Part shown: in pieces, positions 7,095 through 58,888 of the stretch | How the letters are laid out: every line of letters begins with the position of its first letter | Numbering within the stretch: the first letter of the stretch is position 1 | DNA from: a virus | Lineage: Duplodnaviria; Caudoviricetes | IMG/VR virus record: IMGVR_UViG_3300031141_000005 | Coordinates: 1,965-65,964 of that record | Length of the DNA: 64,000 nucleotides | Reading direction: 5' to 3' (one strand) | The notes under the pieces: model-generated | Database searches by the model: none | What the model was told of the DNA's origin: nothing | The model's input: only the letters and a program-made list of their open reading frames with translations | Program-made: the position numbers and the translations under genes

Positions 7095-7099
7095 TTTAT

Positions 7100-7123
7100 A
7101 TGCGCCCCTTCGGGGGCGTATTT
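7100..7123 (+). terminator. Intrinsic terminator/stabilising hairpin after MCP
   Basis: ATGCGCCCC-TTCG-GGGGCGTAT followed by a short T run. Confidence 0.75.
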
Positions 7124-7143
7124 AACCTTTAAATAAAAAAGAA

Positions 7144-7596
7144 ATGGCTGACGTAGTAGACGGCAATAGAGAATACTCAATCGGTAGAAGTGGAAACTAC
7201 TTAACCCGAAGGTGTAAAACATTGCTAAATATAATTGAACCATCATTAGTTAGTAATGCTATAGTATTAACAGAAGAAATGACGGGTGCTATGGTATTCT
7301 TACCAGACTCTTCGGCTGATACTGATGTTATTACTTTACCTCCAGACTGCTTAAACGGTACGAGTTTTACTTTTATCTTCGCAGCAGATCTAACTAGCAC
7401 ATACGTTATGGCTGGTACATTTGTAGGACAAATCCAAGATGGGACTGGACTTCAAGACGTAACCGCTGGAGTCTCTGTAAGCTTCTTGAAGACTGCAGTA
7501 ATGGCAGGGGATAGAATTGAGTGCATCCAACTTAACGGTACTTGGTACTTGAATGGACAGTTTATTACAGCGGCAGCAATGTCTGCAGCATCGTAA
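7144..7596 (+). CDS. Putative auxiliary capsid/decoration protein
   Basis: Beta-rich 150-aa protein between two terminators right after MCP (ITLP...G..FTF, GDRIEC...WY). Confidence 0.5.
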   Translation: MADVVDGNREYSIGRSGNYLTRRCKTLLNIIEPSLVSNAIVLTEEMTGAMVFLPDSSADTDVITLPPDCLNGTSFTFIFAADLTSTYVMAGTFVGQIQDGTGLQDVTAGVSVSFLKTAVMAGDRIECIQLNGTWYLNGQFITAAAMSAAS

Positions 7597-26000: not shown

Positions 26001-29000
26001 ACCTACAAGACCTTACGGGTGTAGTATCTCAAGACGCTTCATTTACTATGAAGAATAAGAGAGCTACATTACTGATAGCACCTCAAGTGTCTGCATTTCC
26101 AGAACACAGAATGGATGTTATTATGTTTAACGATGTAAAGTTACTAACTCTAGATGGTCTTTCTACTATAAAAACTATAGACGGAACAGTTGTAGAGGTT
26201 ACTGCTGATTTACTAGATTCAGCTTCTTACGTTACGCAAGATATGGCTGACGAGATAACTAACGCATACGGGAATACCGTAGACGTAACGGGATCGTTTA
26301 AGTTTGTTGGTGCAGGGCAGAACACAGACAATGCTGCTATATCATCTTCATTCGGATCTGAACGAAGTAAGTTCTACTTTAAAGGTCATACTGTAGTATT
26401 AGATGAATCATCTATAGGAACTCCACTAGAAGGAGTGTACAAAGCCTTACTAGCAAGAGAAAGGTTATTTAAATCTAAAGGAATTAAAGCTAAGGTTATA
26501 GCCTATGCTGATTCTGGTGTTAAGAAAGGTCACATTAAGGGAATCAACTCTAAGAGTCTTGCTGAATGGGATGCCATGAAGGACGATGACGTTGCTATCA
26601 ATGAGTTTCAAGATAGCTGGTCTTACGACTTGAAGAAAGATACTTACGGATATGATGGTAAATACTTCGGTGTTCAAAATGAACTAGATAAGAATGCAAC
26701 TAGTGCGACTGTAGCTAAACAAGCTGTATCCGCAACTAATATATTCGCTGATCATGAGAATACTGAACTTGCTGCGATGTCTCAAGACTTCTTGTCTTTA
26801 TATGCTCAAGCCTTAGACCAACAATATCAAGAAGGTTCTGGAGGTAAGACGATAGAAGAGTCTGGTTTAGAGAGCGCTAGTTCGGGATCTACATTCCCTA
26901 CCATGACTAGAGCTATGAATGAATTAGCGACCTCGCTTCCATTCGTTACAGATTCTTTAAGTAAGACCGCTACAGCTAAAGTTAAGAAAGACGCTCACAG
27001 ACTTAGAACTACAGGTTCTTTATCTCTTCAAATATCAGATGCCTTATATGGCTATGAGTTTGATGGAGATAATGTAATAGAGACTGACAAATCTTTAAAA
27101 CCTATTAGAATAGAGAACGGTAAAGTACTTCCTGCTGAGGTTGCTATATCTAGTCACATGGCTAGTATGCTTGGCGTTACAGAGAAGGAGCTTGAAGGAG
27201 GTAAAGAAGTTTTCTTCTTTGCTACTAGAATACCAGCTTCATCTGTAGGTTCTACTATATTATTAAAGGTTGCTAGAATATCCCCAACTCAAGGTAACAC
27301 TATAGCTATAAACGCTAAGATGTCTGCCATAATGGGGGCTGATTTAGATGGTGATATGCTTCACCTTAACGCTTGGACTAAGAAGCCTAAAGCTGGTTCT
27401 GTTGATGCAATCAAGAACAAGATGCTTGACAAGCTTAAGCAAATGCACGAACACCCAGAGGTGTTTAAGACATTAATTAAAGAGCTTGAATTTAAGACAG
27501 TAACTAAAGCCACCAACCTAGCCTTATATGGTAACGAGAAAGGTTCTACTGCAGTATACAATGACTTCAATGTATTTGATACTGCTGAGATGTACGAACA
27601 AACTAAGGGTAACGCTCCTATGATTGGTCTTATAGCTTCCACTTCTAATCAATTCAACTACCTAGCTCAAGGAAGTCCTTCTGTTAATTATGGAGGATTA
27701 CCTTTAGTGTTAGTTAAAGGAAGAGAAGAGAAATCTGAAAGATATGATAGGTTAGATTCTAAACTATCCGAAGACGGGGGAGGTACTTACTACGCTTACG
27801 CTAACTACTTGAACCTTATCTTAGATGATGGGAAGTATGGTAACAGAGCTAAGTTTGGATTCAATAAAGGTAGTGGTGCTTCTTTTGGTTTAATGATAAA
27901 GATGGGTATTCATCCAAAGGATATTGCATTATTAATGACGAAAGGTAAGTTAGGTGAGTTACTTAGCATGGATAAGTTACAAGACTACGCTAGAGAGCAA
28001 CTTGGTGTAGAGAAAAGCTTAGCTGGTCATATAAAAACTAACTTCCTAAGTAAAGGAATAGATATAGAGGCTATTATAAAAGGAGACTTAGAGTCTGCTA
28101 TAGCTTTAGCTGTTGTGTTAAAGAGCATATCTAACGATATGTATAGTCTAGGTTCTTATGTTGGGCTTGATAGTAATCTACCTGAGTCTCTAGTAGAGGT
28201 TAAGGAAAGAATAAGAGCAGGTAAGAAAGCTTTAGCTAACCAACCTGAGATAGCTCAGAATGCATTCACAAACAACCCACTAATACTTAGTAAGGTTAAA
28301 TTCTTATCTGACTATGCGGTGAAGTTAGCGTCTGAAGATGTTACAATATCTAACGGCTATAGTGATACTGTAGGTGAGTACATGTTACCTGTAGATGAGA
28401 ATGACTTTGATTCTGTTCAGTTTACTGACGCAGCTAAATTACTTAAAGCCCTTAACTTATCTAGGGTTGCCGCAGAAATGCCTATCAGTATTCGTGATAT
28501 GTTATTTGAGTCAGCGGTATCTGGAGTTTCTAAGACAGCTAATAACGTAGAGTCTAAGAACTTCCTATCTATATTAAATAAACTAGACAATCAAGATTCT
28601 TATTCTGGTGTTACTCAGTTAATAGCTAACTACATCAAGAATAACGAAGACTTTGATAATAACTTATTCATACAACATTTAAGTATGAGAAACTCTACCA
28701 GGTTCTTTACAGGAGGTACTGATATTATTCAGGATTCGTCTGTTGTAGAGTTCGGAATGGATAGAGAGATGTTGTTTGAACTACAAGAGGTTGAACAGAT
28801 AGAAGCTTTAGGTAAGGACTTTGAGAAGTTGCCTTCATGGCTTAAGGATTGGTTTATAGCTAATGACTTTATAGTTTCTGGTTGGGGTTCTAACGAGAAG
28901 CAGTCACTACTACCTTACATGGATAGTGCTTCTATATCGAAAGTGAATGGATACTTTAAGTCTGCGTTCTCAAACGGTAAAGATTTCATAGAACAAACAA

Positions 29001-32000
29001 ACGAAAAAACATCTAATGGCGCTGGAGTTTTAAGCATCAATGAATTGATTGGTGTTGATAGTTCTTCAGGTCATGAGGAAGCTTCTTTCTCTTTAGCTAA
29101 GTTAGTTTACGCTGCTCTTCACGGAGCTAAAGGTCTTAACGCTCACGAGCAAACTCACGAAAACGTTAATTCATTTTCTACTAGCTCTCAAATGGAAAAC
29201 GATACTACTCTTGTTTTTGATGAGCAATTTAGAGAGTTAGGTATGTTGTCTGTAGTTTCTAAACTATCTGACCAACATTCAGAAAACTCTAGAGATGATG
29301 TTAAGTACTTAGCTATATACGGAAACGGTATAGACATGACTCAAGGTCTTAGAGTTACATTAAGTAAAGACGCTTACCTTAACGAGAAGCTTCCTTCTGG
29401 AGTTTCTATAGATTCTTTTGATGATGAAGGTAGAGCTAAATGGGATGAGAAGTACTCTAACTACTTAAGGTCTTTGGATATAGTCAACGAGAAGTTGGAT
29501 CACTTAAATGAAGCTAACATAGAAGACCACGACTACACAATGAACAGGTCTGCTTCTGATAAGAGGTTTGATTACGTATCTAATTTATTCGCCAACATAC
29601 AGAATGAATTATCTTATGAGACTGTAGGATTAACTAAAGAACACTTAGATGAGTTAGCTACCACTCCACTTAGACGATATGTAGAATACAACTATGGATT
29701 ACATATATCTAATAAGCAAATCAAGGATTGGGAGTTAGATCAAGGTAAGAGTTTCGTAGAAGAGATTACAATTAAAGGATTAAATAAAGATATATCTACA
29801 TTGGATTTATGGATGTCTCCAGGGGATTACGGTAAGAACAAACCAACCATGGCTTACATTAATAAAGAAATGAAGATGGAGCATATGGACTTCACTAGAA
29901 ACCTTCACCTTGTAACTAAGGAAATGAATAAGAGGTTAGATGCTTTATATAAAAGTAAAGCTACTGAGACTGGTTTCTTAGGAACTAAAGCTGGTCGTAT
30001 ATTTAATCAGTATTTCGCAGTAGGTAATAGAAAGGTGTCTGAGATACTATACGAAAACCTATTCGTAAGCGAGCACGCAACAAGAAGAAAGGTAGATACG
30101 AAAACGAACAAAGTTACTTATACAGATGCTAGTTCATTACGACTTAATCCTTTATTCTTTAAGAGCGCTAGCATCGTAGGAGATCAAAGTGTTATAGATT
30201 CAGATTCTCAAGCGTTTAAAGACTTATCCGTAGCAGAACAAGAGTACTTAAAGATGTACGTTAAGTACACTTCATTCTATAGAAACTTAATACACGCTAA
30301 GGGATTACTTAAAGGTGGCTCTGATAGAGGTACTAGTTATATTCCAGCATCTACTTCATCTAAGTTTGAAACGATGAGTAGAAGAGGTTTATTTGGATTG
30401 TACTACCAAATGCACAGAGGAGACGAAACTCTTTATGATGTAGTAATTGAGGCTGTAAATCCTTTAACTGGAGACCTTGAGAAGTTAGATTACTTTAGTT
30501 GGAAAGCTTTATATATGCACTCTCCTGAAGATGCTTTATTTACTACAGACTCAGACAACTTAAGAGTTGACTTAGGTCACGGTAATACATTGTCTGGAGC
30601 TCAAAGAATTAAAGCGTTCAGAGATATTACAGCTAAGGCTAAGAAGTTAATGACTAAAGGTAAGGATGATGGTGGTAACACTGTTAGTATATCTTCTCCT
30701 ATTAATGATGTTCTAGGTAATGAGGAATTTGTAAACAGATTTACATCTCACAGATCATCAAAGGCTGGGTACTTAGCGACTCACAACCTTCACCAGTCAC
30801 TTAGGTCTTACATACAAACGTTCATGTTCCAACATGGTAACGCTTACTTAGATGTTAAAGCGAATAAAATTAAGAAGCTTTCTTGGAATATAGATGATAA
30901 TAAAGATGAGTTTGGTGTTGAGTCTATGACTCTTCAGGACGCTACTAAAAACAAGTTTATATTTAAAGGATTTGATAGTAAGAACCTTATGGTTGATGCT
31001 GCTATGTCTCAACTTAGGTTGAGTGGTAGCGAGAATGCTTTAAAGTATATGGACAAAGTTGTTAAGGGTGGTTTAATTAATAAGCAGAGAGGTTTGTCTT
31101 TTAGTGAGTCAAAGAACGAAGCTAGTATAATTAAGTTCTTTACTAACTGGACTATGTATATAGCTTTAGGTTTCAACTTCCCAGCAGCTGTTGGTAACGT
31201 CTTGATAGGTAAGTACAATACTTACAGAGCTCAAGGTGGTGCTGGAGTTATTACTGGAGAGAAAAGATACTTAGGTATAGGTTCTAACGGTATGTTCGAC
31301 AAGAGCATTATGAAGAAATCTAGATTGATGATTGAAGAATTTGGTATCTTAACTTACCGAGCTGAAGAGATTGCTGAAGGTACTAGTGGTTCTGCCATTG
31401 ATGCTTTAATTTTCTCTCCTATGGTACTTGCAGAGAACTGGATTCAACAAGCAGCATTCTTAGGCTCTTTAACTCAAGAGCAGTGGGATAGCTATGAGGT
31501 TCACGAAGGTGAGCTTATGTTTAAGGGAGACATCAAGAAAGAAGATGGTACTCTTAAATATCCTGACGCAAAGAGAGAGTCTCAGCTTTCTAAGATTGAA
31601 ATAGCAAAACTAGAGAGAGATGTAATCAACCTTCAAGGTAGAGGTTACTCAGAGACTGATCAGAGATTCATTCAGATATATGCTCTTAGTAATTCATTCA
31701 TGCAATTCAAGAGGTGGTTCCCTACGTTCTTAGCTGATAGATTTAAATCAGAACACATAGATGACTTAGGTACTATGAGAATAGGTTCAGTGAAAGCTGC
31801 TTCTGACTTTATTTCAGAGATGAGAGCTAATGATATTCCTGTAACGGAATGGAGAGAGCACCTTAAAGATAAGCCTAAACACCTTAAAGATGGTGTTAGT
31901 AGATTATGGAGAGGTACTAAAGGTATCGCTATGCTGTCTATGATTCTATTAGCTATCTCTCATAATAGAGACGATGATGCGCCAGAGGATGAGACTTTAA

Positions 32001-32272
32001 AATTAATGGAGAAACTACTTGGTGATATGCTATTAGTCTTTAACGTTCCTAAGCTTACTTACATGGCTAACATACCAGCCTTAAGTACTGCAGATAACTT
32101 AGCTAAGACAGTGTATCATCTTATCGCTCAAACTGAGTACAAACGTAAAAGTAAGTACGGAGATAAGGGAGATAAGAGATTTGTTTCTAACTTCGCTCAA
32201 CTACTACCTTCTTCATCTAGATTCGTTCTAGAGGAGAATGGTAAGAAGAGTAAGAAAAGATCTATACGATAA
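20084..32272 (+). CDS. Giant virion-packaged RNA polymerase polyprotein (double-psi beta-barrel type) with zincin-like HExxH motif and PSBD-like domain
   Basis: 4062 aa. Catalytic GADLDGD (DLDGD at 27341-27355) preceded by an R-I-P motif; FHENFH (HExxH at 22970-22984). Synteny matches crAss-like vRNAP genes. Confidence 0.85.
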   Translation: MSNGLGNGVNAPGEDIENYDSSLDSSASQPDIQSNLEVPQQRSSFSLANINQQQAPMEQMDAWGGAVDLAEQQQNLPDIPEVGTPGIDYDMGHVETIGRSVMAGFGDMFNSMGDMVDFLSFTPSSIVSKHVLGIDTNKPISDAFHNFGDYLDSYGDTVPGLKDMSEITWDDMSDPKFWETGVARMLPFALSLMIPSTLAAKGAQAAMGSMNFLKSSAAIAKGASSVGIRLSQAAATGLIKKGIATIAAGSTANMLEGAALAGGAMNQAIEEGVDPRLAHAVGRRVFVDNLASMGADIVQYGLFTGQAKIGSAIMKTVPGAAKTAGLKAMKAAGIGPVVKQAFKAIGMGAANGITDGVVEQFQEVYQDWSVNKNIAEAKGEDFPTYMEFFMADEQRPTRIMSFATSLLMSGGSNFMQTATENKRKQNTTNQENADVHDLIGVFSDKVDQERTYKVNKKVFKGLDKNGVAITEDEVIEISGEDMQNEIQDSAARKLAMQAVTNGQKDLVMEALAMELEDGNITQDRYDSYVSTIAEVESQMSKYPDGSFNRMEKANLVTAVWAKTSVDRSLKIGEDAKNAEIEKINLNNILSEENKKSQIDALNESYNEGAKSKQAAADIMKDTVNSIYEFSKKRVAAEKFNKTDRPKLNKLAEKVNNNEELTKEENEYVASNKDFSGHIKKESSRLRRSEANSKAPKGFAYSETLEDGTLIYEEAVAKGEPGKVFKFKADKTTEIINNDLGDALNNIDKDIKDGDVVGDAVGDKADTKDSNDKDTDKVDDKDKVDGDANDKADDKVDDKDPTPDKPKVNATPRAAEVAEEEGVDLSKVVGTGTGGKIRVGDVRAYKLKNPNGQSKLFMRLDSAKVMAGLARDAAKRIAGDTASDLFDIATKYLNNRELRRSHTLDSNSHMVLSDYYRRKVVDGVVSMGFMPEIFTAAGVRAAGMASGLGIFLNTELYNEEAVFHENFHIFRMLYGHRPEVMEMMKNIIDQPIYEEIKLKYSNLLLVQSSGDALNLTLALKHASRLNKGVITNIRDFVAKNGGSMESEQTMKDFLAYAMEQVEAIGYKALESKDQTGIQDEALTHLAGKYGALNPDLFFSDKKKADTHKETFGKWLGFIKENSTIEESEALFEEATEGLYKKTNDFSFFEKFSKVKEIIENNQADYSGLSKNSPSQSKYMTAERKAINDSIRVSLDSKLNVAYEMAVAFHDEILGEAKKSSEDLGTKELIKAVKERRIFQDQTQEAFISFARAVLSEIAKDPAHGKNSEKYDKTFKILNANKHGIMNTIKTMFLSGLNVQEQKALKGEESAASEDVESEDGAFAAVIDGGSLRLSSKFGGIIKNFLTSGRAVNGELGATKNNVLKQIIMDINSVSNPEEMQALVEARIGLLKGNPDSLTFNEAIAAEFYTYLDETQDIVPGESIKSAYHELSGFKIDKPFVFVVGGSKDLLSNTDRNYQKRALDFIKFDKTDLIGITGGKPLSLSAIRAQVAKKIHVLKRFENADVSQFSVVDAFNKRIEFSAALYGLMSKENVTKSDVAAFIKRHILPEGTGVDVSLNEIEALMIFDEVSGQSLSIGAYFSQERISEMFYDSLSLRTSRNKDNKVEFGYEAAQDIIIGEVINPMKKITGDLDKSVVRELIKRWKASHDSTESVRGSISVYKTSHENKGSIIEGVAGSMDNMQGVNDIFKAVVTSYIVSSQQNPAGQVRMPEGDQVSVLVKKSALDYNVESLEKLKKDDLPRFKKLYGTNRYALKMAEGNWKLNYNILAGFDGENSIDSKNMTGTQVMYSDLRMILSALETGSDSYKQNIGDHSDKTRRYYADVDALGASISFNEFLGKTDHNDVTVESLEEYVKDYAPGLYKELEAIKSKQVAEMKSLINKHNDGVDNFDLHLVMSPSVIKSLRDSGKDIKTTDNEGAVEEGEGELDLAGDEVLKGSFSVESMMEGAERTHEKLGSNMADVVVAGLNYAVNKYYLQDLTGVVSQDASFTMKNKRATLLIAPQVSAFPEHRMDVIMFNDVKLLTLDGLSTIKTIDGTVVEVTADLLDSASYVTQDMADEITNAYGNTVDVTGSFKFVGAGQNTDNAAISSSFGSERSKFYFKGHTVVLDESSIGTPLEGVYKALLARERLFKSKGIKAKVIAYADSGVKKGHIKGINSKSLAEWDAMKDDDVAINEFQDSWSYDLKKDTYGYDGKYFGVQNELDKNATSATVAKQAVSATNIFADHENTELAAMSQDFLSLYAQALDQQYQEGSGGKTIEESGLESASSGSTFPTMTRAMNELATSLPFVTDSLSKTATAKVKKDAHRLRTTGSLSLQISDALYGYEFDGDNVIETDKSLKPIRIENGKVLPAEVAISSHMASMLGVTEKELEGGKEVFFFATRIPASSVGSTILLKVARISPTQGNTIAINAKMSAIMGADLDGDMLHLNAWTKKPKAGSVDAIKNKMLDKLKQMHEHPEVFKTLIKELEFKTVTKATNLALYGNEKGSTAVYNDFNVFDTAEMYEQTKGNAPMIGLIASTSNQFNYLAQGSPSVNYGGLPLVLVKGREEKSERYDRLDSKLSEDGGGTYYAYANYLNLILDDGKYGNRAKFGFNKGSGASFGLMIKMGIHPKDIALLMTKGKLGELLSMDKLQDYAREQLGVEKSLAGHIKTNFLSKGIDIEAIIKGDLESAIALAVVLKSISNDMYSLGSYVGLDSNLPESLVEVKERIRAGKKALANQPEIAQNAFTNNPLILSKVKFLSDYAVKLASEDVTISNGYSDTVGEYMLPVDENDFDSVQFTDAAKLLKALNLSRVAAEMPISIRDMLFESAVSGVSKTANNVESKNFLSILNKLDNQDSYSGVTQLIANYIKNNEDFDNNLFIQHLSMRNSTRFFTGGTDIIQDSSVVEFGMDREMLFELQEVEQIEALGKDFEKLPSWLKDWFIANDFIVSGWGSNEKQSLLPYMDSASISKVNGYFKSAFSNGKDFIEQTNEKTSNGAGVLSINELIGVDSSSGHEEASFSLAKLVYAALHGAKGLNAHEQTHENVNSFSTSSQMENDTTLVFDEQFRELGMLSVVSKLSDQHSENSRDDVKYLAIYGNGIDMTQGLRVTLSKDAYLNEKLPSGVSIDSFDDEGRAKWDEKYSNYLRSLDIVNEKLDHLNEANIEDHDYTMNRSASDKRFDYVSNLFANIQNELSYETVGLTKEHLDELATTPLRRYVEYNYGLHISNKQIKDWELDQGKSFVEEITIKGLNKDISTLDLWMSPGDYGKNKPTMAYINKEMKMEHMDFTRNLHLVTKEMNKRLDALYKSKATETGFLGTKAGRIFNQYFAVGNRKVSEILYENLFVSEHATRRKVDTKTNKVTYTDASSLRLNPLFFKSASIVGDQSVIDSDSQAFKDLSVAEQEYLKMYVKYTSFYRNLIHAKGLLKGGSDRGTSYIPASTSSKFETMSRRGLFGLYYQMHRGDETLYDVVIEAVNPLTGDLEKLDYFSWKALYMHSPEDALFTTDSDNLRVDLGHGNTLSGAQRIKAFRDITAKAKKLMTKGKDDGGNTVSISSPINDVLGNEEFVNRFTSHRSSKAGYLATHNLHQSLRSYIQTFMFQHGNAYLDVKANKIKKLSWNIDDNKDEFGVESMTLQDATKNKFIFKGFDSKNLMVDAAMSQLRLSGSENALKYMDKVVKGGLINKQRGLSFSESKNEASIIKFFTNWTMYIALGFNFPAAVGNVLIGKYNTYRAQGGAGVITGEKRYLGIGSNGMFDKSIMKKSRLMIEEFGILTYRAEEIAEGTSGSAIDALIFSPMVLAENWIQQAAFLGSLTQEQWDSYEVHEGELMFKGDIKKEDGTLKYPDAKRESQLSKIEIAKLERDVINLQGRGYSETDQRFIQIYALSNSFMQFKRWFPTFLADRFKSEHIDDLGTMRIGSVKAASDFISEMRANDIPVTEWREHLKDKPKHLKDGVSRLWRGTKGIAMLSMILLAISHNRDDDAPEDETLKLMEKLLGDMLLVFNVPKLTYMANIPALSTADNLAKTVYHLIAQTEYKRKSKYGDKGDKRFVSNFAQLLPSSSRFVLEENGKKSKKRSIR
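22330..22500 (+). repeat. Low-complexity Asp/Lys linker (DK-x-D repeats) within vRNAP
   Basis: DKDIKDGDVVGDAVGDKADTKDSNDKDTDKVDDKDKVDGDANDKADDKVDDKD. Confidence 0.8.
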
Positions 32273-39370: not shown

Positions 39371-41544
39371 TGGCTAACACAGATGTAAATATATCGTTAC
39401 AAGCTAAAACCAACGCTACCATAAATCTAACAACTTTAGATGGCGGTATAGTTAGTGGCGCTTCAACCGTAACTCCTTTAATCTCCTTTATAGCTACAGG
39501 TCCTCAAGGACCTTCAGGCCCTCAAGGTATTGATGGGGTTGCTGCTATTTCAGTAGGGTCTATAACATCTGACCATTTAGGTGTAGACTCTGTAGGTTCT
39601 AGCGAAATAATAGACGAATCTGTTAGATATGAAGAATTAGCTGTAGCTTCCGTTAGAGGTAATAGAATTATGCCTGGAGCTATAACAACAGTTAGGTTAG
39701 CTAATGAGTCTGTGACTCAGGTTAAGTTGGCTGACAACTCTGTAGGCGCTGCTCAAATAATAAACGGTACTATAACTCAAGAGCTATTACAAGACCTTGC
39801 TGTTCATGGAGATAAGTTAGATGACTTGTCCGTTACTGCTGGTAAATTACAGGATTTATCTATCATTACCACTAAGATTAGGGATAGAAATGTTACTGGA
39901 GCTAAGATTGTATCTAATCCAGATCTTGATGGTGAGGTTAAAGCTAATAACTTAAAACTTAAAGGCTCTTCTCCTGCTACTATTACAGGTCCAGATGCTT
40001 TCTCTTTACAATTAAAAACAAATACTACCTTAGATGTTCTAGATACTTCAGGAGTAACTAAAGCTTCTATAGATCAAAGCGGTAACTTAACTATTGAAGG
40101 TACTGTAGACGGAAGGGATGTTGCAGTTGATGGAGCGAAGCTTGATACTATATCAGCTAACGATGCTATAGATTGGACTACAGACCAGGTAGCTACAAAC
40201 ATACATTCAGGTAATTACACAGATACAGATACAGTATACGCACACCCTACCAACCACGCTATCTCAGTTACGACTGGACTACAAGCTGCGCTCGATTCTA
40301 AAGTAGATGACAGCCAAGTACTTACGGATGTACCTTCAGGTGCATTATTTACAGACACAGACACTGTATATACCCACCCTACAAATCATGCAATTTCTGT
40401 TACAACAGGACTTCAGGCAGCGTTGGATGGGAAAGTAGACGATAGTCAAATACTTACGGACGTTCCTAGTGGAGCCCTCTTTACAGACACCGATACAGTG
40501 TATACACACCCCGCTAATCATGCTATCTCAGTAATCACTGGGTTGCAATCTGCATTAGATGGTAAGGTTGATGACAGTCAGGTTCTTACAGACGTGCCTA
40601 GTGGTGCTTTATTCACCGATACAGACACTATATACTCTCACCCATCCAATCATGCTATTTCTGTAACTACAGGGCTACAATCAGCTCTAGACGGAAAGGT
40701 AGATGACGGGCAAGTATTAACAGATGTACCTTCGGGAGCTCTGTTTACTGATACGAATACTGTATATGACGATACGACTATACAAGCAGAGGTTGATTTA
40801 AACACAGCCAAAACTTCTAACATAGTACAGACCACTATAACAGGTAACGCTGGAACGGCTACAGCATTAACTAGTGGTAGTAAGACTATAGCTGGAACTC
40901 TAGACCTTTCAGGAGCTACTGATAAGTTTGTAATTAACAATACTGAAGTAGCTCAAGTAGCTTCTGGGGTTGTAACTATAGGTCAAACGAATAGGGTTTT
41001 AAAGCTAGACTCCTCAGAAACGCAAATACTTTCATCTACAGGGATACAATTAGGCCACGCAACTGACACTACTATTGCTAGGGTTTCAGCAGGGGTTGTA
41101 TCAATAGAAGGTGTTAACATACAGAAAGAAAATGCTCACCATCACTTTATACATGCAGGTTTCTTTATGAGTTATCCATACTCAAGATACATACCCTTAA
41201 ATGGTAGTTTGAATGAGCAGAATACCGCAACATCATCTCCAGAGTATGTAAACTTCACATTTCCGTATGACGGGTTTGTAAAGAAAATGATTCTTAGGAC
41301 TGAGACAGATATGGGAAGTACTAACTTAAAGCTATACAAAGGAGCTAGTGGCTCTACTGTTACTACTGCATTAGGAAATCTTAGTGCTACCGTAGATGCT
41401 AACGATGCAATTACTTTTGATTTTACTTCAGTAAGTAATGCTTATAGTAAAGGCGACACCATGGCTATAAAGATAGATCCTACAGATGATCCTGACGGAG
41501 GGCAAAATATTACTATTGAATTGGTGTTTGATTTAACGACATAA
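39370..41544 (+). CDS. Tail fibre protein
   Basis: Short collagen GPQG stretch, V/IT..KL.D repeats, 4x44-aa repeats and a C-terminal receptor-binding-like domain. Confidence 0.8.
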   Translation: MANTDVNISLQAKTNATINLTTLDGGIVSGASTVTPLISFIATGPQGPSGPQGIDGVAAISVGSITSDHLGVDSVGSSEIIDESVRYEELAVASVRGNRIMPGAITTVRLANESVTQVKLADNSVGAAQIINGTITQELLQDLAVHGDKLDDLSVTAGKLQDLSIITTKIRDRNVTGAKIVSNPDLDGEVKANNLKLKGSSPATITGPDAFSLQLKTNTTLDVLDTSGVTKASIDQSGNLTIEGTVDGRDVAVDGAKLDTISANDAIDWTTDQVATNIHSGNYTDTDTVYAHPTNHAISVTTGLQAALDSKVDDSQVLTDVPSGALFTDTDTVYTHPTNHAISVTTGLQAALDGKVDDSQILTDVPSGALFTDTDTVYTHPANHAISVITGLQSALDGKVDDSQVLTDVPSGALFTDTDTIYSHPSNHAISVTTGLQSALDGKVDDGQVLTDVPSGALFTDTNTVYDDTTIQAEVDLNTAKTSNIVQTTITGNAGTATALTSGSKTIAGTLDLSGATDKFVINNTEVAQVASGVVTIGQTNRVLKLDSSETQILSSTGIQLGHATDTTIARVSAGVVSIEGVNIQKENAHHHFIHAGFFMSYPYSRYIPLNGSLNEQNTATSSPEYVNFTFPYDGFVKKMILRTETDMGSTNLKLYKGASGSTVTTALGNLSATVDANDAITFDFTSVSNAYSKGDTMAIKIDPTDDPDGGQNITIELVFDLTT
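40219..40746 (+). repeat. Four tandem 132-bp (44-aa) repeats in tail fibre
   Basis: TDTDTVYxHPxNHAISVxTGLQxALDxKVDDxQVLTDVPSGALF starting at 40219, 40351, 40483 and 40615. Confidence 0.95.
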
Positions 41545-41974: not shown

Positions 41975-42349
41975 ATGGCAACGATAAACACAGATATAGC
42001 ACAAAAGATAGACATAACAGCTAGAGAGAATAATAGCTCTACTATTAACCTTACTATAGCAGACGCTGCTGGAACTGCGTTTAGCTTAGTGGGTTACAAT
42101 ATAACTTTCTATGTATACGATAATGATAGTGAAGTATTATTCGTTAAATCTAGCATGTCTGCTCTTGGTGGTATTGTGAATACCCTTGATGGTAACTACG
42201 TTTTAGATTCTTCGGGTAAGATAACAATGGCTATAAGCGATGAAGATAATAGTATATCTCCTGGTTCTTATAAATATAAATTAAGTATATACAAAGAGGG
42301 AGAGACTCGAACTTGGATGTACGGTAAATACAAGTTGAATGAAGATTAA
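41975..42349 (+). CDS. Tail-fibre adaptor (BppU-N-like), paralog 3
   Basis: IDITARENNS...GSYKYKL...TWMYGKY. Confidence 0.6.
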   Translation: MATINTDIAQKIDITARENNSSTINLTIADAAGTAFSLVGYNITFYVYDNDSEVLFVKSSMSALGGIVNTLDGNYVLDSSGKITMAISDEDNSISPGSYKYKLSIYKEGETRTWMYGKYKLNED

Positions 42350-42482
42350 AGAAGAAGACAAGGCAAAGAACGAAGAGGTTGCTAGAAAGCAATGGGATAG
42401 TTGGTTAACTAACTTAGAGGAAGGGGATCAACCAGAGGCTTGTTCTATAGACGACCCTGACTGTGAAGCTTGTGGCTCGTAA
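42339..42482 (+). CDS. 47-aa peptide ending ACSIDDPDCEACGS (RNR alpha C-tail-like)
   Basis: Hand-translated: MKIKEEDKAKNEEVARKQWDSWLTNLEEGDQPEACSIDDPDCEACGS. Confidence 0.7.
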   Translation: MKIKEEDKAKNEEVARKQWDSWLTNLEEGDQPEACSIDDPDCEACGS

Positions 42483-42490
42483 AAAAGAAT

Positions 42491-42498
42491 TATATTTG
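42491..42498 (+). promoter_or_regulatory. TATATTTG -7 element 3 nt before ATG (near-leaderless)
   Basis: TAnnTTTG match at the start of the envelope/lysis module. Confidence 0.45.
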
Positions 42499-42501
42499 AC
42501 T

Positions 42502-42714
42502 ATGGAAATATTTAAAAACGACAACAACTGGAATGAGAAGTCTATTGTAGGATTTATAGCTTTTGCTGTTATGTGTCTTATAATGGTAGCTGACCTTGTT
42601 ACGGGTTGGCTTGGTGCTGAACTAATAGTAAACGAGTTTGTTTATCAAGCCTTCGTTTGGGTTGTCTTAGGTTGCTTCGGTATATCGGGTGTAGAGAAAT
42701 TCGCAAAGAAATGA
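42502..42714 (+). CDS. Small 2-TM membrane protein (holin-like)
   Basis: ATG at 42502; two hydrophobic helices and a basic C-terminus (EKFAKK). Confidence 0.6.
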   Translation: MEIFKNDNNWNEKSIVGFIAFAVMCLIMVADLVTGWLGAELIVNEFVYQAFVWVVLGCFGISGVEKFAKK

Positions 42715-43727
42715 GAAAACTAATATATATACTACTACTATGTCCAGTAATTGCAAGTGCACAAATTCTAAGGTTCGCAACTTTCTACGCAAGCTTTTCA
42801 ACTGGTGCTCCTTTCACGGAGAACCAACAATTTCAAGTGAATGGTGTTGCTGGTTCAGGCCAGCTGATAGAAATGACACAAGTAAGTCAACCAAACTACA
42901 ACTTAAGTATTGGATTAAGAAAGGTCGCTAGGTTTGACTATCAAGTAAAGAGAGGTAACTTCTATACTGGAGCAGAGAATGAGATAAGCGACTACGCTAC
43001 AATCTCTAACGCTCCTGGATTAGAGTACCTGTTTGAGTACTCCTCTATACGTAACAGGGGAATGCTATTTCGCCAGCATGAATATAAGATTAGATACATA
43101 TCAGATAGATACACTGCAAAGGTTTCTTATGTAGATAATGGTCTCATTGATCTTAAATACACTCTGGGCGAGGTTAGGTTACGCAAAAGCTTTGGGAATT
43201 TAGACCTTACTTTTGGCGTAGCCCATCGTTCTCATCCCGTGTATGGACATTCTCCAATAACTGAATGGTTCTCTAAACCTGAGAATAAACACTGGTGGCA
43301 GCTAGCTAATGAGTTTGGTGCTTCTAGTAATGACTTGGAAGAGTGGACTGTAGGTGATGAAGTTATCGCTGAGTCTGATAGAGAGTTCTATACATACCAT
43401 TTCGGTGACTTAGTTGATAGGTATAACGAAGAGCAACTCGACCTTTTAGGACTACAACAAGAGGTGTCTGCAGTCTTAGGCGCTGACTACTATCTATACT
43501 CTTCTAATACTTGGGTTCATTCGTGGGCTTCTGTATATCCTATACACAAAGGGTTGAGCGATTATTCTTACTCATATCCTAATAAAAATATAGAGTGGGA
43601 TATTGGTTTTATTGCGGGCGCTAAAGTTAACAGACATTTTAGTATATTTGTAGAAGGCCGTCATTTAAGATACTGGGACATACTGTCTTATAAGATGCAG
43701 GTCGGAATAAACTACATTATATTTTAA
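42711..43727 (+). CDS. Predicted outer-membrane beta-barrel protein
   Basis: Sec signal MRKLIYILLLCPVIASA-Q, amphipathic beta-strands and C-terminal beta-signal QVGINYIIF. Confidence 0.65.
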   Translation: MRKLIYILLLCPVIASAQILRFATFYASFSTGAPFTENQQFQVNGVAGSGQLIEMTQVSQPNYNLSIGLRKVARFDYQVKRGNFYTGAENEISDYATISNAPGLEYLFEYSSIRNRGMLFRQHEYKIRYISDRYTAKVSYVDNGLIDLKYTLGEVRLRKSFGNLDLTFGVAHRSHPVYGHSPITEWFSKPENKHWWQLANEFGASSNDLEEWTVGDEVIAESDREFYTYHFGDLVDRYNEEQLDLLGLQQEVSAVLGADYYLYSSNTWVHSWASVYPIHKGLSDYSYSYPNKNIEWDIGFIAGAKVNRHFSIFVEGRHLRYWDILSYKMQVGINYIIF

Positions 43728-43731
43728 CGTT

Positions 43732-44013
43732 ATGGCAAAAGAATTGAATGAAGATACTTCTGTACAGATAAGCGTAAAAGCTTTAGGAGGTTTGGCTTTT
43801 GGAATATTCTCACTAGTAGGTATGTGGTTTGTTCTTCAGGGAGATATAGCAGAAGCAAAGCTATTACCTATACCACCAGACCCAGAGGTTACCAGAATGG
43901 AGTTCGACATGAAAGATAAGCTTATACGTCAAACGATCATGACTACCCAAGAAGATGTCACCGAGATTAAGGATGACCTCAAAGCTATTAAAGCAAAGCT
44001 TTATGAAGACTAG
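43732..44013 (+). CDS. Single-TM coiled-coil membrane protein
   Basis: One TM helix, a Pro-rich linker and a C-terminal coiled coil. Confidence 0.55.
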   Translation: MAKELNEDTSVQISVKALGGLAFGIFSLVGMWFVLQGDIAEAKLLPIPPDPEVTRMEFDMKDKLIRQTIMTTQEDVTEIKDDLKAIKAKLYED

Positions 44014-44377
44014 ACTCCTATATATATTACTATTATCCCCCCTCTCATTATTCGCTCAAGAGTTCGTTAACTCTAATACGTTCGACGCTAAAGTATCTAA
44101 AGGTATTGTGGTAGTTGAATTCTGGGCTGAATGGAACAAATCAAACGAAGTACCCTTCTTAGGAGAATTAAAGGACTGTGTTAGTTATAAACTAAGCATT
44201 GTTGGTAACTCTTCTATACAAAAGCAATTTAACGTTACTTCTGTGCCTACCTTGATCATATTAAATAATGGCATTGAAGAAAAGCGATTTAACTCTAACA
44301 TAATGATGCAGTTAAACGCTACGAAGAAGGATGTACAATCTACCGTGGACGAAATAACATTTAATAAATTTCAGTAA
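44003..44377 (+). CDS. Exported thioredoxin-fold protein lacking CxxC
   Basis: Signal MKTRLLYILLLSPLSLFA-Q; VVVEFWAEWN replaces the usual WCxxC; cis-Pro motif VTSVPTLII. Confidence 0.7.
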   Translation: MKTRLLYILLLSPLSLFAQEFVNSNTFDAKVSKGIVVVEFWAEWNKSNEVPFLGELKDCVSYKLSIVGNSSIQKQFNVTSVPTLIILNNGIEEKRFNSNIMMQLNATKKDVQSTVDEITFNKFQ

Positions 44378-44925
44378 TGAATAAAGAAAGACTCGAAAAG
44401 TTATGCTGGTCAGTGCTTTGTATAGCCCTATTATTTTTCATCATAATAGGCATTAGTACTGCAGCTAAAGCTCAACAACAACAAGTATTTGTGGAGTGTA
44501 CAACAGGAGACTATCCTGATGAGATCACCTGGCAGATACTTACATGTAACGGAGGAGTCTTATTAGAAGGTGCAGCCCCGTATTTAGGTGCTGTAGTTTT
44601 ACCAGAGTACTACCAGATAAACATGATGGACTCTTATGGAGACGGATGGAACGGTGCATACTTGTATGTAGGACAAACAGAGTATGATTTCTTATCTGAT
44701 GTAGATTGGATAGATTCTCTTGGTACTTGGCCTCAAGACTTTAAAGAACAACTAGTAGACGTAGGTTGTCTTACTATAGGAATAGAAGAGGTAGGTAATA
44801 CAAAATTCATTCCAACACACTACTACGATATTTTAGGTAGAGAAGTAAAGCCTACAAGAGGTTTCTATATAGCAAGCGATGGCATACTAACTAGAAAGGT
44901 TTACATAGATGAGATTAAGCGATAA
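44377..44925 (+). CDS. Secreted protein with T9SS-type C-terminal sorting-domain-like tail
   Basis: N-terminal signal/TM, Y..EI.W and DSYGDGWNG motifs, C-terminal GIEE...YYDILGREV...KVYI. Confidence 0.6.
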   Translation: MNKERLEKLCWSVLCIALLFFIIIGISTAAKAQQQQVFVECTTGDYPDEITWQILTCNGGVLLEGAAPYLGAVVLPEYYQINMMDSYGDGWNGAYLYVGQTEYDFLSDVDWIDSLGTWPQDFKEQLVDVGCLTIGIEEVGNTKFIPTHYYDILGREVKPTRGFYIASDGILTRKVYIDEIKR

Positions 44926-45367
44926 TTTTGTACTGTCTGAGATTACTCGAAGCAATGCAGCTAAACGATTAGGTATAGATAATGGACCTAGTAAAGAACA
45001 CCTACGAAGTATTCAAAGGATTGTTACTAAACTCTTACAACCTATGCGTGAAGCTCTTGGTCCTATCAGGATCAGCAGTGGTTATAGGAACCCATCAGTC
45101 AACAGGGCTATCGGTGGAAGTTCTAAAAGTCAGCACTGTAAAGGCGAGGCTTTGGATATTCAATTCTGGAAAGATGGTCAAATATCTAACAAAGAAATAT
45201 ACGACTGGGTATTAGCTAGTGGTATAGAGTTCGACCAAATGATTAATGAGTTTGACTTCGCTTGGATTCATATATCATTAAAGAAAGAAGACAACAGAAA
45301 ACAAGTGTTGGAAGCCTACAAGGACGAAGACAACGATACTAAATATAAATACGCCGACCTATCATGA
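44909..45367 (+). CDS. Endolysin, peptidase M15A family
   Basis: LS.NF.L.E, ISSGYR, SQH.KGEA.D and WIHIS zinc-peptidase motifs. Confidence 0.9.
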   Translation: MRLSDNFVLSEITRSNAAKRLGIDNGPSKEHLRSIQRIVTKLLQPMREALGPIRISSGYRNPSVNRAIGGSSKSQHCKGEALDIQFWKDGQISNKEIYDWVLASGIEFDQMINEFDFAWIHISLKKEDNRKQVLEAYKDEDNDTKYKYADLS

Positions 45368-45747
45368 GCAAACTGTTAGACATATTAGGAGGTAATATTT
45401 TAAGTAGTGTAGGTAACATAGTAGACAACCTTACCACATCTGATGAGGAGAGACTGTCTGCTAAACAAGCTATAGAAGAAGTTCTTATGAAAGCCGAAGC
45501 ACAGGCTCAACAGGAAGTCACAAAGCGATGGGAAGCTGACATGAAGTCTGACAACTGGCTTAGTAAGAATATACGACCACTGATATGCATTTTTCTAACT
45601 GCTATATTTGTGGTTGTTTCTATTTTCGACGGTAACGCTGGTGGCTTTACTATATCACCAGGCTATGTACCTATATATCAAACACTTCTTATAACTGTAT
45701 ATGGCGCTTACTTTGCTGGAAGAACCATAGAAAAGATAAAGAAATAA
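45364..45747 (+). CDS. Holin (3TM/GTA-holin-like family)
   Basis: TSDEERL..K, RW.ADM.SD.WLSKNIRP, two TM helices and YFAGRT.EK. Confidence 0.75.
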   Translation: MSKLLDILGGNILSSVGNIVDNLTTSDEERLSAKQAIEEVLMKAEAQAQQEVTKRWEADMKSDNWLSKNIRPLICIFLTAIFVVVSIFDGNAGGFTISPGYVPIYQTLLITVYGAYFAGRTIEKIKK

Positions 45748-46130
45748 TGATTGAGTACTTAATAATACATTCTACTGGTACAGAAAAAGATTACGTACCT
45801 GAGAAGAAAGAATATAATTTATCTGTATCTTGTGATATAGTACATTTCAATGGGCAGCTGTCTACTTTTATGAAAGAGTCAGAGCATCCAGCTAGCGAGG
45901 AAACCTACAAGCATATAGCTTACATAGGCGGTACACTAGATGGTAAGCCAGCGGACACTGCTACATGGAAACAATATGACACGTTAGAGATTATAGTTAT
46001 GCATCATTTACTATACAATCAACGATTAAGAATAGGGACTTCGTCTGCATTCTTTGAATTAGAAAGTCCTGGAATCAATCTTAAGAGATGGTTAAAGGAT
46101 ATAGGTGTTAACGATAAAAACTTGATGTAA
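45747..46130 (+). CDS. Divergent amidase_2/T7-lysozyme-like protein
   Basis: IEYLIIHSTGT and HIAYIGG...DT.T..Q...L; the later zinc ligands appear to be missing. Confidence 0.55.
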   Translation: MIEYLIIHSTGTEKDYVPEKKEYNLSVSCDIVHFNGQLSTFMKESEHPASEETYKHIAYIGGTLDGKPADTATWKQYDTLEIIVMHHLLYNQRLRIGTSSAFFELESPGINLKRWLKDIGVNDKNLM

Positions 46131-47887: not shown

Positions 47888-47915
47888 AAAAAAGGGGGCG
47901 CATGCCCCTTTCTTT
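47888..47915. terminator. Bidirectional terminator at convergence of late (+) and early (-) blocks
   Basis: AAAAAAGGGGGC-GCAT-GCCCCTTTCTTT. Confidence 0.8.
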
Positions 47916-57332: not shown

Positions 57333-58733
57333 CTAAATCGCCCCGTTAAATTTATCCTTCCTACTATTAACATACCTAGATACTTGACCTCCCAGATTAT
57401 CTCCGAGAGCTGAATGTAATACCTCGTCTAAGGTTATACCTCCAGGTAAGTTTCTAGCTTCCCAAATTCTTCGCTGGTTATTCTCAACGAAGTTTACAAA
57501 TGCCATACATATCAACGTCCAATTACGGATCTTCTCATAGTTCATGGACGCTCCATGATTTCTGAACTCAATAGTGTTATGACCATTAGCTTGGCTATAC
57601 CCAACCATATTTAACCATGTATACCTCTTTGAAGGATACCTACCTAATCTGGTTTTCTTGTTGTTATCCGCATCCAATGTGCATGAAGAATAAATCAAGT
57701 CTGCTAAATGTTCTTTGTAATTCTTGAAAGTCATCTCCTTATGTTTAGTAGGGATAGGCTTACAATACGTACTACGCTTTCTAGATGGTGGCATCATTTC
57801 AAAGACCTCATCTTGAAGCATTAAGCCTAAGTGAGTAGCCATGATAGTGAACCTTCTATTAAATGTAGCTCCACCTATGTGTACATGTATACCACATTGA
57901 GAATCAATCTCGCAGTTTTCTTGTACGGTATCACAAACTTTCTTGAGCATGCTTAACCCTGAATCTCCTACAAGAACTCCAGTTACATATTCCTTACCGC
58001 TTATACTACCATCATTTACTGCAGATACATTTAAATCATTACCTTCACTAGTCGGTACATAACCTCCTGATGTCTCTACTTCAACACCGAATGTATATCT
58101 CATACCGTTAGTGTTGGTGAATGTCGTAGACATTGTACCACGATCCCTAGCATACTTAGACATCTTTTGGCCTTCGCTAGCTACAGACGAGTTATCGAAC
58201 GTACTTCCTCCATTACCTTCATCCCCTCCGTTCTCGCAGTTGTCAAAGTTGTGGTTGTTTGAATGTCTATACTCTTCACATCCATCGCAATAGTATACAT
58301 CATTGTTGTCTGCTGCGCAGCTATCTATATACGTTTCGTCGTCGTCTGAACAGAATATAAGGTCATCAGAGTCTTCATGTACTTGAATCATATCTCCGCT
58401 ACCGTCTATAACGCTTCTAGAGACTTCTTCAGAATATCTATCTTCATTAAGAATACACCAAAAGGTGTCGTCATAATTCATAAGCTCTCCGTCGTATATA
58501 CGTACTACGTCGTATTCCTCTTGAAGTAATTCAAAAGCGTCATCACGCTTAGGGCTGTTGTGTAACTCTTCCGATGAGCGTATGTCATAAACACTTAGGT
58601 CTACGACAACAGGACTGCTCATGCAAGGTTCGTATAACTCGAACTCGTCGCTTATCTCCTCCTCCTCTTCTATGAGTAATACGTCAACGCTTTCCTCTTC
58701 CTCTAATATTGAGTCGATTGTTTCTCTTGGCAT
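57333..58733 (-). CDS. Amidoligase (COOH-NH2 ligase, amidoligase_2 family) with acidic Cys-containing N-terminal region
   Basis: FGVEVE, DGSI, E.VT, CGIHVH, RY..LN and TIEFR motifs. Confidence 0.85.
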   Translation of the reverse strand: MPRETIDSILEEEESVDVLLIEEEEEISDEFELYEPCMSSPVVVDLSVYDIRSSEELHNSPKRDDAFELLQEEYDVVRIYDGELMNYDDTFWCILNEDRYSEEVSRSVIDGSGDMIQVHEDSDDLIFCSDDDETYIDSCAADNNDVYYCDGCEEYRHSNNHNFDNCENGGDEGNGGSTFDNSSVASEGQKMSKYARDRGTMSTTFTNTNGMRYTFGVEVETSGGYVPTSEGNDLNVSAVNDGSISGKEYVTGVLVGDSGLSMLKKVCDTVQENCEIDSQCGIHVHIGGATFNRRFTIMATHLGLMLQDEVFEMMPPSRKRSTYCKPIPTKHKEMTFKNYKEHLADLIYSSCTLDADNNKKTRLGRYPSKRYTWLNMVGYSQANGHNTIEFRNHGASMNYEKIRNWTLICMAFVNFVENNQRRIWEARNLPGGITLDEVLHSALGDNLGGQVSRYVNSRKDKFNGAI

Positions 58734-58888
58734 AATTTCTTAATGTTTTTAAGCTTACGCTTCACAGACGCTATATCAGCGTTGTTGTTATTATTAGAAC
58801 GAAGAGATAAGCCCTCTAAAGAGCTTATAACTTCATTCGTAAACTGTTCGTCTGATATGAATATCAGTAATTTCTCTAGATTATTCAT
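58703..58888 (-). CDS. Hypothetical protein
   Basis: Short ORF between the GATase and amidoligase genes. Confidence 0.45.
   Translation of the reverse strand: MNNLEKLLIFISDEQFTNEVISSLEGLSLRSNNNNNADIASVKRKLKNIKKLCQEKQSTQY

Follow-up and report, generated by a model that had tools for sequence, protein, structure and literature searches.

Two-component spanins, such as Rz/Rz1 of lambda, are encoded beside the other lysis genes as embedded or overlapped gene pairs and consist of a type II inner-membrane (IM) protein with a periplasmic coiled coil and an outer-membrane (OM) lipoprotein, the two being disulfide-linked. To our knowledge, the way in which phages of Bacteroidota pass the OM at lysis is largely unknown. 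Unimolecular spanins are single lipoproteins with a C-terminal transmembrane (TM) segment, and the disruptin of phage phiKT is a small cationic peptide. Both are alternatives for the OM step in phages without Rz/Rz1 (bioRxiv 10.1101/515445; PMC12596118). According to the first of these sources, spanins cannot be recognised in about 15% of the phages that infect Gram-negative hosts, and there is also a third kind of OM disruptor (bioRxiv 10.1101/515445); the second, a survey, reports that Bacteroidetes phages use unimolecular spanins (USP) exclusively (PMC12596118). Here we describe a gene block in the IMG/VR virus record IMGVR_UViG_3300031141_000005 (65,964 bp, estimated 97% complete), of which bases 1965-65964, a stretch of 64,000 nucleotides referred to as the window, were analysed. 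The core of the block is a trio of genes encoding an exported β-barrel, a bitopic coiled-coil protein and an exported thioredoxin fold with a dead active site. This module lies outside every described system. It belongs to none of the Tsx, KdgM, OMPLA and autotransporter families and is not a redox thioredoxin, and full-text searches of the literature gave no description of such a module. We propose, at a probability of roughly 0.4, that it may be a late, phage-only device that would take the place of spanins in disrupting the OM at lysis.

The block belongs to a single plus-strand gene chain (41975-46130), all junctions of which are small overlaps or gaps of at most 20 nt (gene end/next start: 42349/42339, 42714/42711, 43727/43732, 44013/44003, 44377/44377, 44925/44909, 45367/45364, 45747/45747). 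Tail-fibre genes (phrog_24456, 3.2e-24; collagen-like) and then a phrog_1084 protein flank it upstream, followed in order by a micro-protein, a two-TM protein, the barrel, the bitopic protein, the thioredoxin, a secreted protein, an M15 endolysin, a holin and a 127-aa protein. No terminator-like site was found between 41545 and 47891, and the only one listed besides the hairpin at 47892-47911 is located at 40594-40607, inside a 724-aa tail-fibre gene. Translational coupling ties the module genes to those for endolysin and holin, with which they share a late unit ending at that hairpin. A preliminary description of this DNA, made from the sequence alone, had noted a tightly coupled block between tail fibres and endolysin, and in this it was right: the gene block is real, some of the labels attached to it are inexact or not supported, and the interpretation attached to it is partly supported. 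From the operon position we infer that the module would be expressed late.

The conservation of the trio was followed in other phages. In 20 IMG/VR loci retrieved with the barrel, the order barrel, coiled coil, thioredoxin is kept without exception (20/20); the secreted protein comes next in all 19 loci with DNA at that place, and among the 19 whose sequence continues beyond the module, the M15 gene is directly next in 14. Relatives of the thioredoxin are encoded in 334 IMG/VR stretches, and a wider survey covered the best 80 of these 334 thioredoxin-seeded loci. The coiled-coil gene lies directly upstream of the thioredoxin gene in 75/75 testable loci, and the barrel upstream in 53/53 loci whose upstream DNA reaches 3.7 kb or more (74/80 overall, adjacent in 58 and separated in 16). 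Relatives of the two-TM protein were found in 27/56 testable loci, and the secreted protein lies downstream of the thioredoxin gene in 41/76. As only barrel, coiled coil and thioredoxin are constant, the other two are accessories; thus the genes do co-occur in other phages, as had been anticipated, but not as one fixed unit of five.

In a set of 5.8 billion proteins, 121 relatives of the barrel were retrieved at E ≤ 1e-3, all of them metagenomic, and the family counts 339 representatives at 50% identity in metagenomes. Three back-translated peptide motifs from alignment A1, scanned as patterns against the genomes of 185,579 bacterial and archaeal species, returned 0 real relatives and one spurious 35-residue match. 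On these searches the barrel family is phage-only and under strong conservation. One divergent barrel, P0264, retrieved no locus when used as a query.

The AlphaFold2 model of the barrel, built on a 51-sequence alignment, reaches a predicted local distance difference test (pLDDT) score of 80.5 and a predicted template-modelling (pTM) score of 0.72. Its leading structural matches are all OM barrels, the best being the 12-stranded Tsx (Z 14.5, root-mean-square deviation 3.7, 182 residues aligned), EstA (13.0), KdgM (12.8) and NanC (12.6), followed by NalP (11.9), LpxR (10.9), OMPLA (10.1) and FapF (9.9); Foldseek gives NanC at E 1e-5 and FapF at 3.1e-5, with TM-scores of about 0.35. PorV (6h3i_F) reaches only Z 6.8, far below the 12-stranded barrels, and the phage barrel has no Pfam match to PorV/PorP-type barrels. 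The protein begins with a signal peptide (ASA|Q) and ends in ...INYIIF, and the terminal Phe338 is at least 90% conserved among the 51 sequences. The signal-peptide barrel with a terminal Phe of the preliminary description is thereby borne out, and structure prediction, the check suggested for it, does return a TM barrel. The strand count is unsettled at the N-terminus, where DSSP assigns 13 long strands in all and pLDDT is 59-72 for residues 11-60.

The barrel has no sequence match in Pfam (E ≤ 0.1), PHROGs, NCBIfam or the PDB (E ≤ 10), and 18 divergent relatives match no Pfam family at E ≤ 0.01; therefore it shares a fold class, and not a family, with the Tsx, KdgM, OMPLA, LpxR and autotransporter barrels. 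With Tsx, KdgM/NanC, autotransporter β-domains, FapF, LpxR and OMPLA it has fold class, size, signal peptide and C-terminal aromatic residue in common, whereas a helical insert of about 65 residues (approximately 180-246), a conserved loop of about 30 residues and the confinement to phage contigs are specific to the phage family. The insert varies in length and is the most variable part of the protein, while the loop (75-98, within the most conserved segment, 72-102) is highly conserved and modelled with low confidence. Counting strands back from the C-terminal Phe, the loop is probably periplasmic and the insert external. In divergent barrels (P0243, P0247, P0250), the insert contains D-x-[DN]-x-[DN]-G-x-x-D loops resembling calcium-binding sites (alignment A4, columns ~330-360); the window barrel has no such stretch. 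A lipid-cleaving enzyme of the OMPLA, LpxR or PagL kind was considered and rejected: these folds score Z 8-11, no better than channels, and no conserved His-x-Ser type site was seen, His270 being at least 90% conserved and a nearby Ser not.

In the second part of the trio, a 93-aa protein, a short acidic N-terminus leads into a single TM segment, which a Pro-rich linker joins to a heptad-spaced helix of about 40 residues; the protein contains no Cys. The single hydrophobic segment followed by a heptad-patterned helix confirms the one-TM coiled-coil protein proposed earlier, and gives it the predicted architecture of an i-spanin (IM partner of a spanin pair), that is, an N-terminal TM segment and a periplasmic coiled coil. 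A 225-aa form found on T4-like contigs, with two coiled-coil stretches joined by a linker, an extra cytoplasmic domain and a poly-Pro linker, is homologous to it by profile comparison (hhalign 96.1%, E 3.2e-9), although BLASTP finds no match between the two forms. A 108-aa coiled-coil paralogue of the same TM plus coiled-coil build (e.g., L044:2140-2466) also occurs; among the 80 loci, 11 have it immediately before the M15 gene and one (L049) immediately after that gene, and in L065 it stays with M15 at 3.2 kb from the trio.

The third part had been called a Cys-less exported thioredoxin. It is indeed an exported thioredoxin fold that has lost the CxxC pair, but it is not Cys-less, since there is one Cys in the window protein and two in many relatives. 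Against PDB thioredoxins, its profile gives matches at about 1e-12, with W-N-x-x-N aligned on their W-C-G-H-C, and both this motif and the cis-Pro are invariant in 15/15 aligned sequences, including a clade at 34-36% identity. Because both active-site Cys are replaced by Asn, thiol-disulfide chemistry is impossible at that site. Compared with TrxA family thioredoxins, the phage protein keeps the fold and the cis-Pro loop and differs in being exported and in having invariant Asn for both active-site Cys. Such an invariant dead active-site face suggests a role in binding rather than in catalysis. Co-folding of barrel residues 19-338 with thioredoxin residues 18-122 and coiled-coil residues 36-93 (the scored partner) gave 0.00 twice against a mark of 0.32 and was run with no controls, so that it says nothing either way.

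The link with lysis was then quantified in the wider survey. In 63/71 testable loci, the module has a lysis-type gene within 1 kb (57/71 if DUF5675 proteins are left aside, and 52/71 with M15 alone), and this kind of neighbour is seen in 8 of the 9 clusters into which the thioredoxins fall at 70% identity. The partner varies in type and position although the linkage persists: it can be an M15 gene after the module, a DUF5675 protein before or after it (the lysin in L015 and L095), or a holin-like gene directly after it, as in L018. In the source record itself, no open reading frame (ORF) with a lipobox was found on the coding strand of the window or in the remaining 2.1 kb, and a scan of ORFs of at least 30 aa on both strands gave only two tiny antisense matches far from the cassette, with a rule that detected 2/2 known lipoprotein controls. 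Thus, no two-component or unimolecular spanin is recognisable, in agreement with the earlier remark that the lysis block lacks a lipoprotein spanin. None of the module proteins matches a spanin family in Pfam or PHROGs. Two cultured phages with the same holin family offer a comparison: Nonlabens phage P12024S has two unrelated genes in the slot of the trio, and Vibrio phage 1.238.A has a lone TM plus coiled-coil protein after the holin, with no lipoprotein frame seen among the translations inspected.

The module therefore resembles the Rz/Rz1 pair in some respects and departs from it in others. Both are neighbours of lysis cassettes, both include a type II IM protein with a periplasmic coiled coil, and the module would likewise link the two membranes. 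However, its OM partner is an integral 12-stranded barrel instead of a lipoprotein, its third constant part, the dead thioredoxin, has no counterpart in spanins, and its coiled coil has no Cys, no embedded or overlapped gene partner and no family match. Since the o-spanin (OM partner) lipoprotein is absent and no spanin family is matched, the module is not a spanin. Nor does it correspond to a unimolecular spanin, as its proteins have no lipobox and form a multi-gene set with a barrel, or to the disruptin of phiKT, which is a single small peptide. The features of the block and of its late unit are collected in Table 1.

Table 1. Features of the envelope gene block and of the late unit that contains it (window coordinates).
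Feature	Position	Strand	Basis or remarks
47-aa acidic micro-protein	42339..42482	+	ORF; ends C-S-I-D-D-P-D-C-E-A-C-G-S
TAnnTTTG match TATATTTG	42491..42498	+	3 nt before the ATG of the two-TM protein
Two-TM inner-membrane protein, 70 aa, accessory	42502..42714	+	Hydrophobic 17-mers, residues 14-30 and 46-62
Exported 12-stranded OM β-barrel, 338 aa, core part 1	42711..43727	+	AlphaFold2 model and fold matches
Bitopic inner-membrane protein, 93 aa, core part 2	43732..44013	+	One hydrophobic segment, residues 13-29
Exported thioredoxin fold, 124 aa, core part 3	44003..44377	+	PF00085 1.1e-7, 32.2 bits vs cut-off 23.5
Secreted β-sandwich protein, 182 aa, accessory	44377..44925	+	Signal peptide; sandwich 34-132; ~50-residue tail
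M15 peptidase endolysin	44909..45367	+	PF08291 5e-18; phrog_894 4.5e-33
Holin	45364..45747	+	phrog_3427 4.9e-27; PF11351 1.9e-7
127-aa protein, possible degenerate amidase-type lysin	45747..46130	+	Via relative L015:11647-12024
Two-way terminator hairpin	47892..47911	.	Closes the late plus-strand unit

The window encodes a terminase, a portal, a major head protein, a giant 4062-aa ORF and tail fibres, with the replication block on the opposite strand. Its large terminase subunit (TerL) shares 28-29% identity with the crAss-like enzymes, and the other matching records are Flavobacterium and Cellulophaga phages; therefore the source is a distant crAss-related phage with Bacteroidota-type hosts, for which the label crAss-like holds only at a distance. 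The three exported proteins of the block have, as previously noted, predicted Ala-Gln cleavage sites (ASA|Q, LFA|Q and AKA|Q, read past the hydrophobic core). A small residue followed by Gln straight after the hydrophobic core is found in 110/115 near barrel homologues, 17/20 divergent barrels and 94/118 relatives of the secreted protein. These sites fit the Bacteroidetes signal-peptide "Q-rule" (PMC5837995, PMC10653852). Beyond its possible sources, at least 20 marine metagenome runs contain the window sequence with hardly any change; all of them date from 2019 and perhaps stem from one campaign.

A divergent version of the trio is present in a second kind of phage. The loci L023, L026 and L028 encode a barrel about 42% identical to that of the window, the 225-aa coiled coil, an NxxN thioredoxin and then a 328-aa lipoprotein, which stands in the place of the secreted protein and is not homologous to it (hhalign 2.5%). 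In two records of this clade, the major capsid protein is of T4 type (PF07068, 2.6e-77 and 2.3e-68) and a crAss-type terminase is missing; one of these two records measures 168.8 kb and is 95% complete. The presence of the trio on both crAss-related and T4-capsid contigs indicates that it moves between unrelated phage lineages. Of the three divergent barrels that depart from the Q-rule, P0243 seeded the T4-like loci, P0245 is placed there by alignment likeness only and P0264 is unplaced. As the first two look T4-like, the host of this clade may differ. In the same three loci, a 135-138-aa membrane protein with a mechanosensitive-channel β-domain (PF00924, 2.8e-5; L023:4573-4989) precedes the barrel, where the window has the two-TM protein, and a Zeta_toxin/AAA-type kinase gene lies just before it.

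The preliminary description left four functions open, namely superinfection exclusion, surface remodelling, nutrient or metal uptake and spanin-independent OM disruption. The context favours the last of them, because the block sits in a late operon with endolysin and holin and because a lysis-type gene is so often within 1 kb. Its further statement that the proteins together span IM, periplasm and OM is supported as far as predicted locations go, and hydrophobic-segment calls agree with the topologies of Table 1. In the mechanism we propose, the barrel would be inserted in the host OM late in infection as the OM anchor, and the bitopic coiled-coil protein would serve as the IM anchor. The dead thioredoxin could act as a periplasmic adaptor or chaperone between the two. 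Holin and M15 endolysin would first remove the peptidoglycan, and the assembly would then break or fuse the OM, doing the job of lipoprotein spanins, while the two-TM and secreted β-sandwich proteins may be lineage-specific exported extras of this phage. The data show the folds, predicted export signals, conservation, confinement to phages, linkage with lysis genes and lack of a lipobox ORF; the localisation, the contact between parts and the lytic role we infer from sequence and predicted structure.

Several observations weigh against a lytic device. The periplasmic part of the 93-aa protein, about 57 residues, is too short to cross the periplasm alone, and unlike the disulfide-linked Rz/Rz1 it has no Cys. 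We know of no integral barrel that drives membrane fusion. The slot between tail fibres and lysis genes also houses phage host-interaction genes, and therefore position alone does not fix the role. As for the survey, 8 of the 71 loci have no lysis-type neighbour, and the counting of DUF5675 as a lysin depends solely on a weak match to Tlde1 (6e-5, below cut-off). A single 70% cluster holds 58 of the 80 loci, themselves the best 80 of 334 matches, so that the counts are not independent and are inflated by relatedness. None of the three loci of the T4-like clade showed a recognisable lysis gene within 5 kb, and 1.8 kb separate the barrel gene of L028 from the other two genes. Finally, four barrel queries found no relative in 50,697 GenBank phage records, and no cultured carrier phage was found.

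The place of the block directly after the tail-fibre genes also speaks for a role in superinfection exclusion, receptor masking or surface remodelling, by which the infected cell or its debris would no longer adsorb further phages or progeny. Phage OM proteins and lipoproteins with exclusion-type roles are known, such as Lom of lambda and Llp of T5. The insert of the barrel, with its changing length and D-x-N-x-N-G-type loops, varies, provided that it lies outside the cell, as expected of a surface-exposed region, and the accessory exported proteins differ by lineage. Nevertheless, we consider such a role unlikely. Exclusion would be better served by early timing than by a late-operon position coupled to lysis genes, and the trio is constant (75/75, 53/53), unlike sporadic morons. 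Moreover, the most conserved barrel segment is the one that strand counting places, in a topology still unsettled, on the probable periplasmic side.

Small specific channels (Tsx, KdgM and NanC) head the fold matches of the barrel, which could accordingly be read as an auxiliary porin of this type importing nucleosides or oligosaccharides. We find this improbable, given that no sequence-profile match to these families was obtained at E ≤ 0.1. Autotransporter, LpxR and OMPLA barrels score nearly equally (Z 10-13), so that the match reflects strand number and not function; besides, an uptake channel would leave the obligatory coiled-coil and thioredoxin partners unexplained, and late expression would leave uptake little time to pay.

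A part in the timing or sensing of lysis would follow if the bitopic protein were an antiholin or holin partner, in the way that RI of T4 acts on holin T, and if barrel and thioredoxin relayed a periplasmic signal to it. The coiled-coil protein and its paralogue do travel with endolysin and holin, and the 225-aa form, with its cytoplasmic domain and poly-Pro linker, has parts that could suit such a task. On the other hand, searches of Pfam and PHROGs gave no match to known antiholins, and the need for an OM barrel in timing control is explained by nothing known, which makes this role a rather poor candidate. A type V-like export or display system, with the barrel translocating the secreted β-sandwich or other cargo and the thioredoxin as periplasmic chaperone, appears the least probable of all, since the rank of autotransporter and FapF barrels among the best matches and the variable exported protein usually encoded next after the thioredoxin are offset by a secreted protein missing in 35/76 loci, a T4-like replacement lipoprotein that is not homologous and a barrel without fused passenger. 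The probability that is left over belongs to other, unnamed possibilities.

The secreted protein had been described as cargo of the type IX secretion system (T9SS) with a T9SS-like C-terminal domain (CTD), and this label is not sustained. No match to PF18962 or TIGR04183 was obtained for the window protein (E ≤ 0.1 in Pfam, E ≤ 1 in NCBIfam), and 0/43 members of its family match Por_Secre_tail at E ≤ 1. The sole lead towards T9SS is an Atlas feature score of 0.81, below the trust level of that tool. A type A CTD is a seven-stranded (3+4) Ig-like β-sandwich (PMC11285876), for which the tail of the phage protein, 51 residues after the last invariant Cys131 with three short strands, is short; in a model of the whole protein, solved T9SS CTDs superpose on the N-terminal sandwich and not on the tail, with scores no higher than noise (Z 4.0-4.3). 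This model (pLDDT 77.4) shows a small β-sandwich at 34-132, its fold matches do not rise above noise (best Z 5.5; Foldseek E ≥ 0.076), and no PDB sequence matches at E ≤ 10. The protein has 151 relatives, and its alignments show an invariant D-x-Y-G-D-G-W-N-G motif and three invariant Cys.

At its upstream end, the block opens with a 47-aa micro-protein that the preliminary description does not list. It is cytoplasmic and Cys-rich (three Cys; C-x6-C-x2-C-G-S), has neither signal peptide nor TM segment, and probably stands outside the envelope module; it weakly resembles the C-terminal redox tail of the ribonucleotide reductase (RNR) α-subunit (NF005544, E 0.0093, far below cut-off). Its relatives occur in 12/80 loci at varying positions, and in L007 and L018 they lie just upstream of a GroES-like gene (phrog_13932), not by the module. 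The TAnnTTTG element said to precede the block really lies inside it, downstream of 42339. With 75 occurrences in the window versus 61.9 +/- 7.5 expected, the motif shows no enrichment, and it is found 8-25 nt before the ATG in only 1 of 13 distinct upstream regions, that of the window itself. The match is thus neither enriched nor conserved, and no better than chance. The two-TM protein, in contrast, was correctly recognised, with two hydrophobic 17-mers. Its real start is the ATG at 42502; the family searches used the ORF from the upstream GTG at 42463 (and, for the thioredoxin, from 44009, two residues short) and gave no significant Pfam or PHROG family, TssN being sub-threshold only (18.4 bits against a cut-off of 30.3). 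Its relatives adjoin the barrel in eight loci and the coiled-coil gene in three, and most of the others lie 0.4-0.9 kb upstream of the barrel. At the other end of the chain, the 127-aa protein at 45747-46130 has no family match of its own; its relative L015:11647-12024 (29% identical) matches Amidase_2 (1.9e-6) and the amidase phrog_822 (1.8e-16), and the window protein may be a second, degenerate lysin.

Additional genes are inserted in the trio of some relatives. In several close relatives (L004:1777-2079, L005, L010, L011 and six survey loci), a 100-aa exported protein is encoded between the coiled-coil and thioredoxin genes, with weak matches to DUF2279 (1.9e-4) and to phrog_26616 "lipoprotein" (1e-10) and no canonical lipobox by the rule used. 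One clade (L086:3741-4439, L092:2745-3506, L105:3218-3955) has an exported Cys-rich protein between barrel and coiled coil, which displays a low-density lipoprotein (LDL)-receptor-A-like D-G-W-E-D-C-V-D-x-S-D-E motif and a long Ile/Tyr/Asp/Thr-rich repeat region and has no Pfam match. Many adjacent ORFs of L086 and L092 (e.g., L092:2141-2437, 2440-2742, 3509-3772 and 6997-7284) share the N-terminal words M-A/G-F-K-M-x-G-F/W..., which suggests a common N-terminal signal or a paralogous family. Elsewhere in the window, the 4062-aa ORF (20084-32272), located among the structural genes, matches no PHROG at E ≤ 1e-5 and may, by position, be a crAss-type virion cargo or RNA polymerase protein. In the early/replication block on the minus strand (57333-59867), amidoligase-like (phrog_2443) and glutamine amidotransferase-like (phrog_4736, phrog_14519) genes adjoin each other and may belong to a base- or metabolite-modifying pathway.

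Taken one step further, the lytic role would make the module a new class of phage OM disruptor, in which a barrel is coupled via a redox-dead thioredoxin to an IM coiled coil, replacing lipoprotein spanins in abundant marine Bacteroidota phages and exchanged as a cassette between crAss-related and T4-like phages; this wider proposal is put forward as a speculative one. The trio is common in ocean viromes, as the 339 barrel representatives and 334 thioredoxin stretches indicate. If the module is lytic, it would bring a novel type of lysis protein and a further, new task for the thioredoxin fold; if it is not, it would still be an unexplained and strongly conserved rebuilding of the host envelope by phages.

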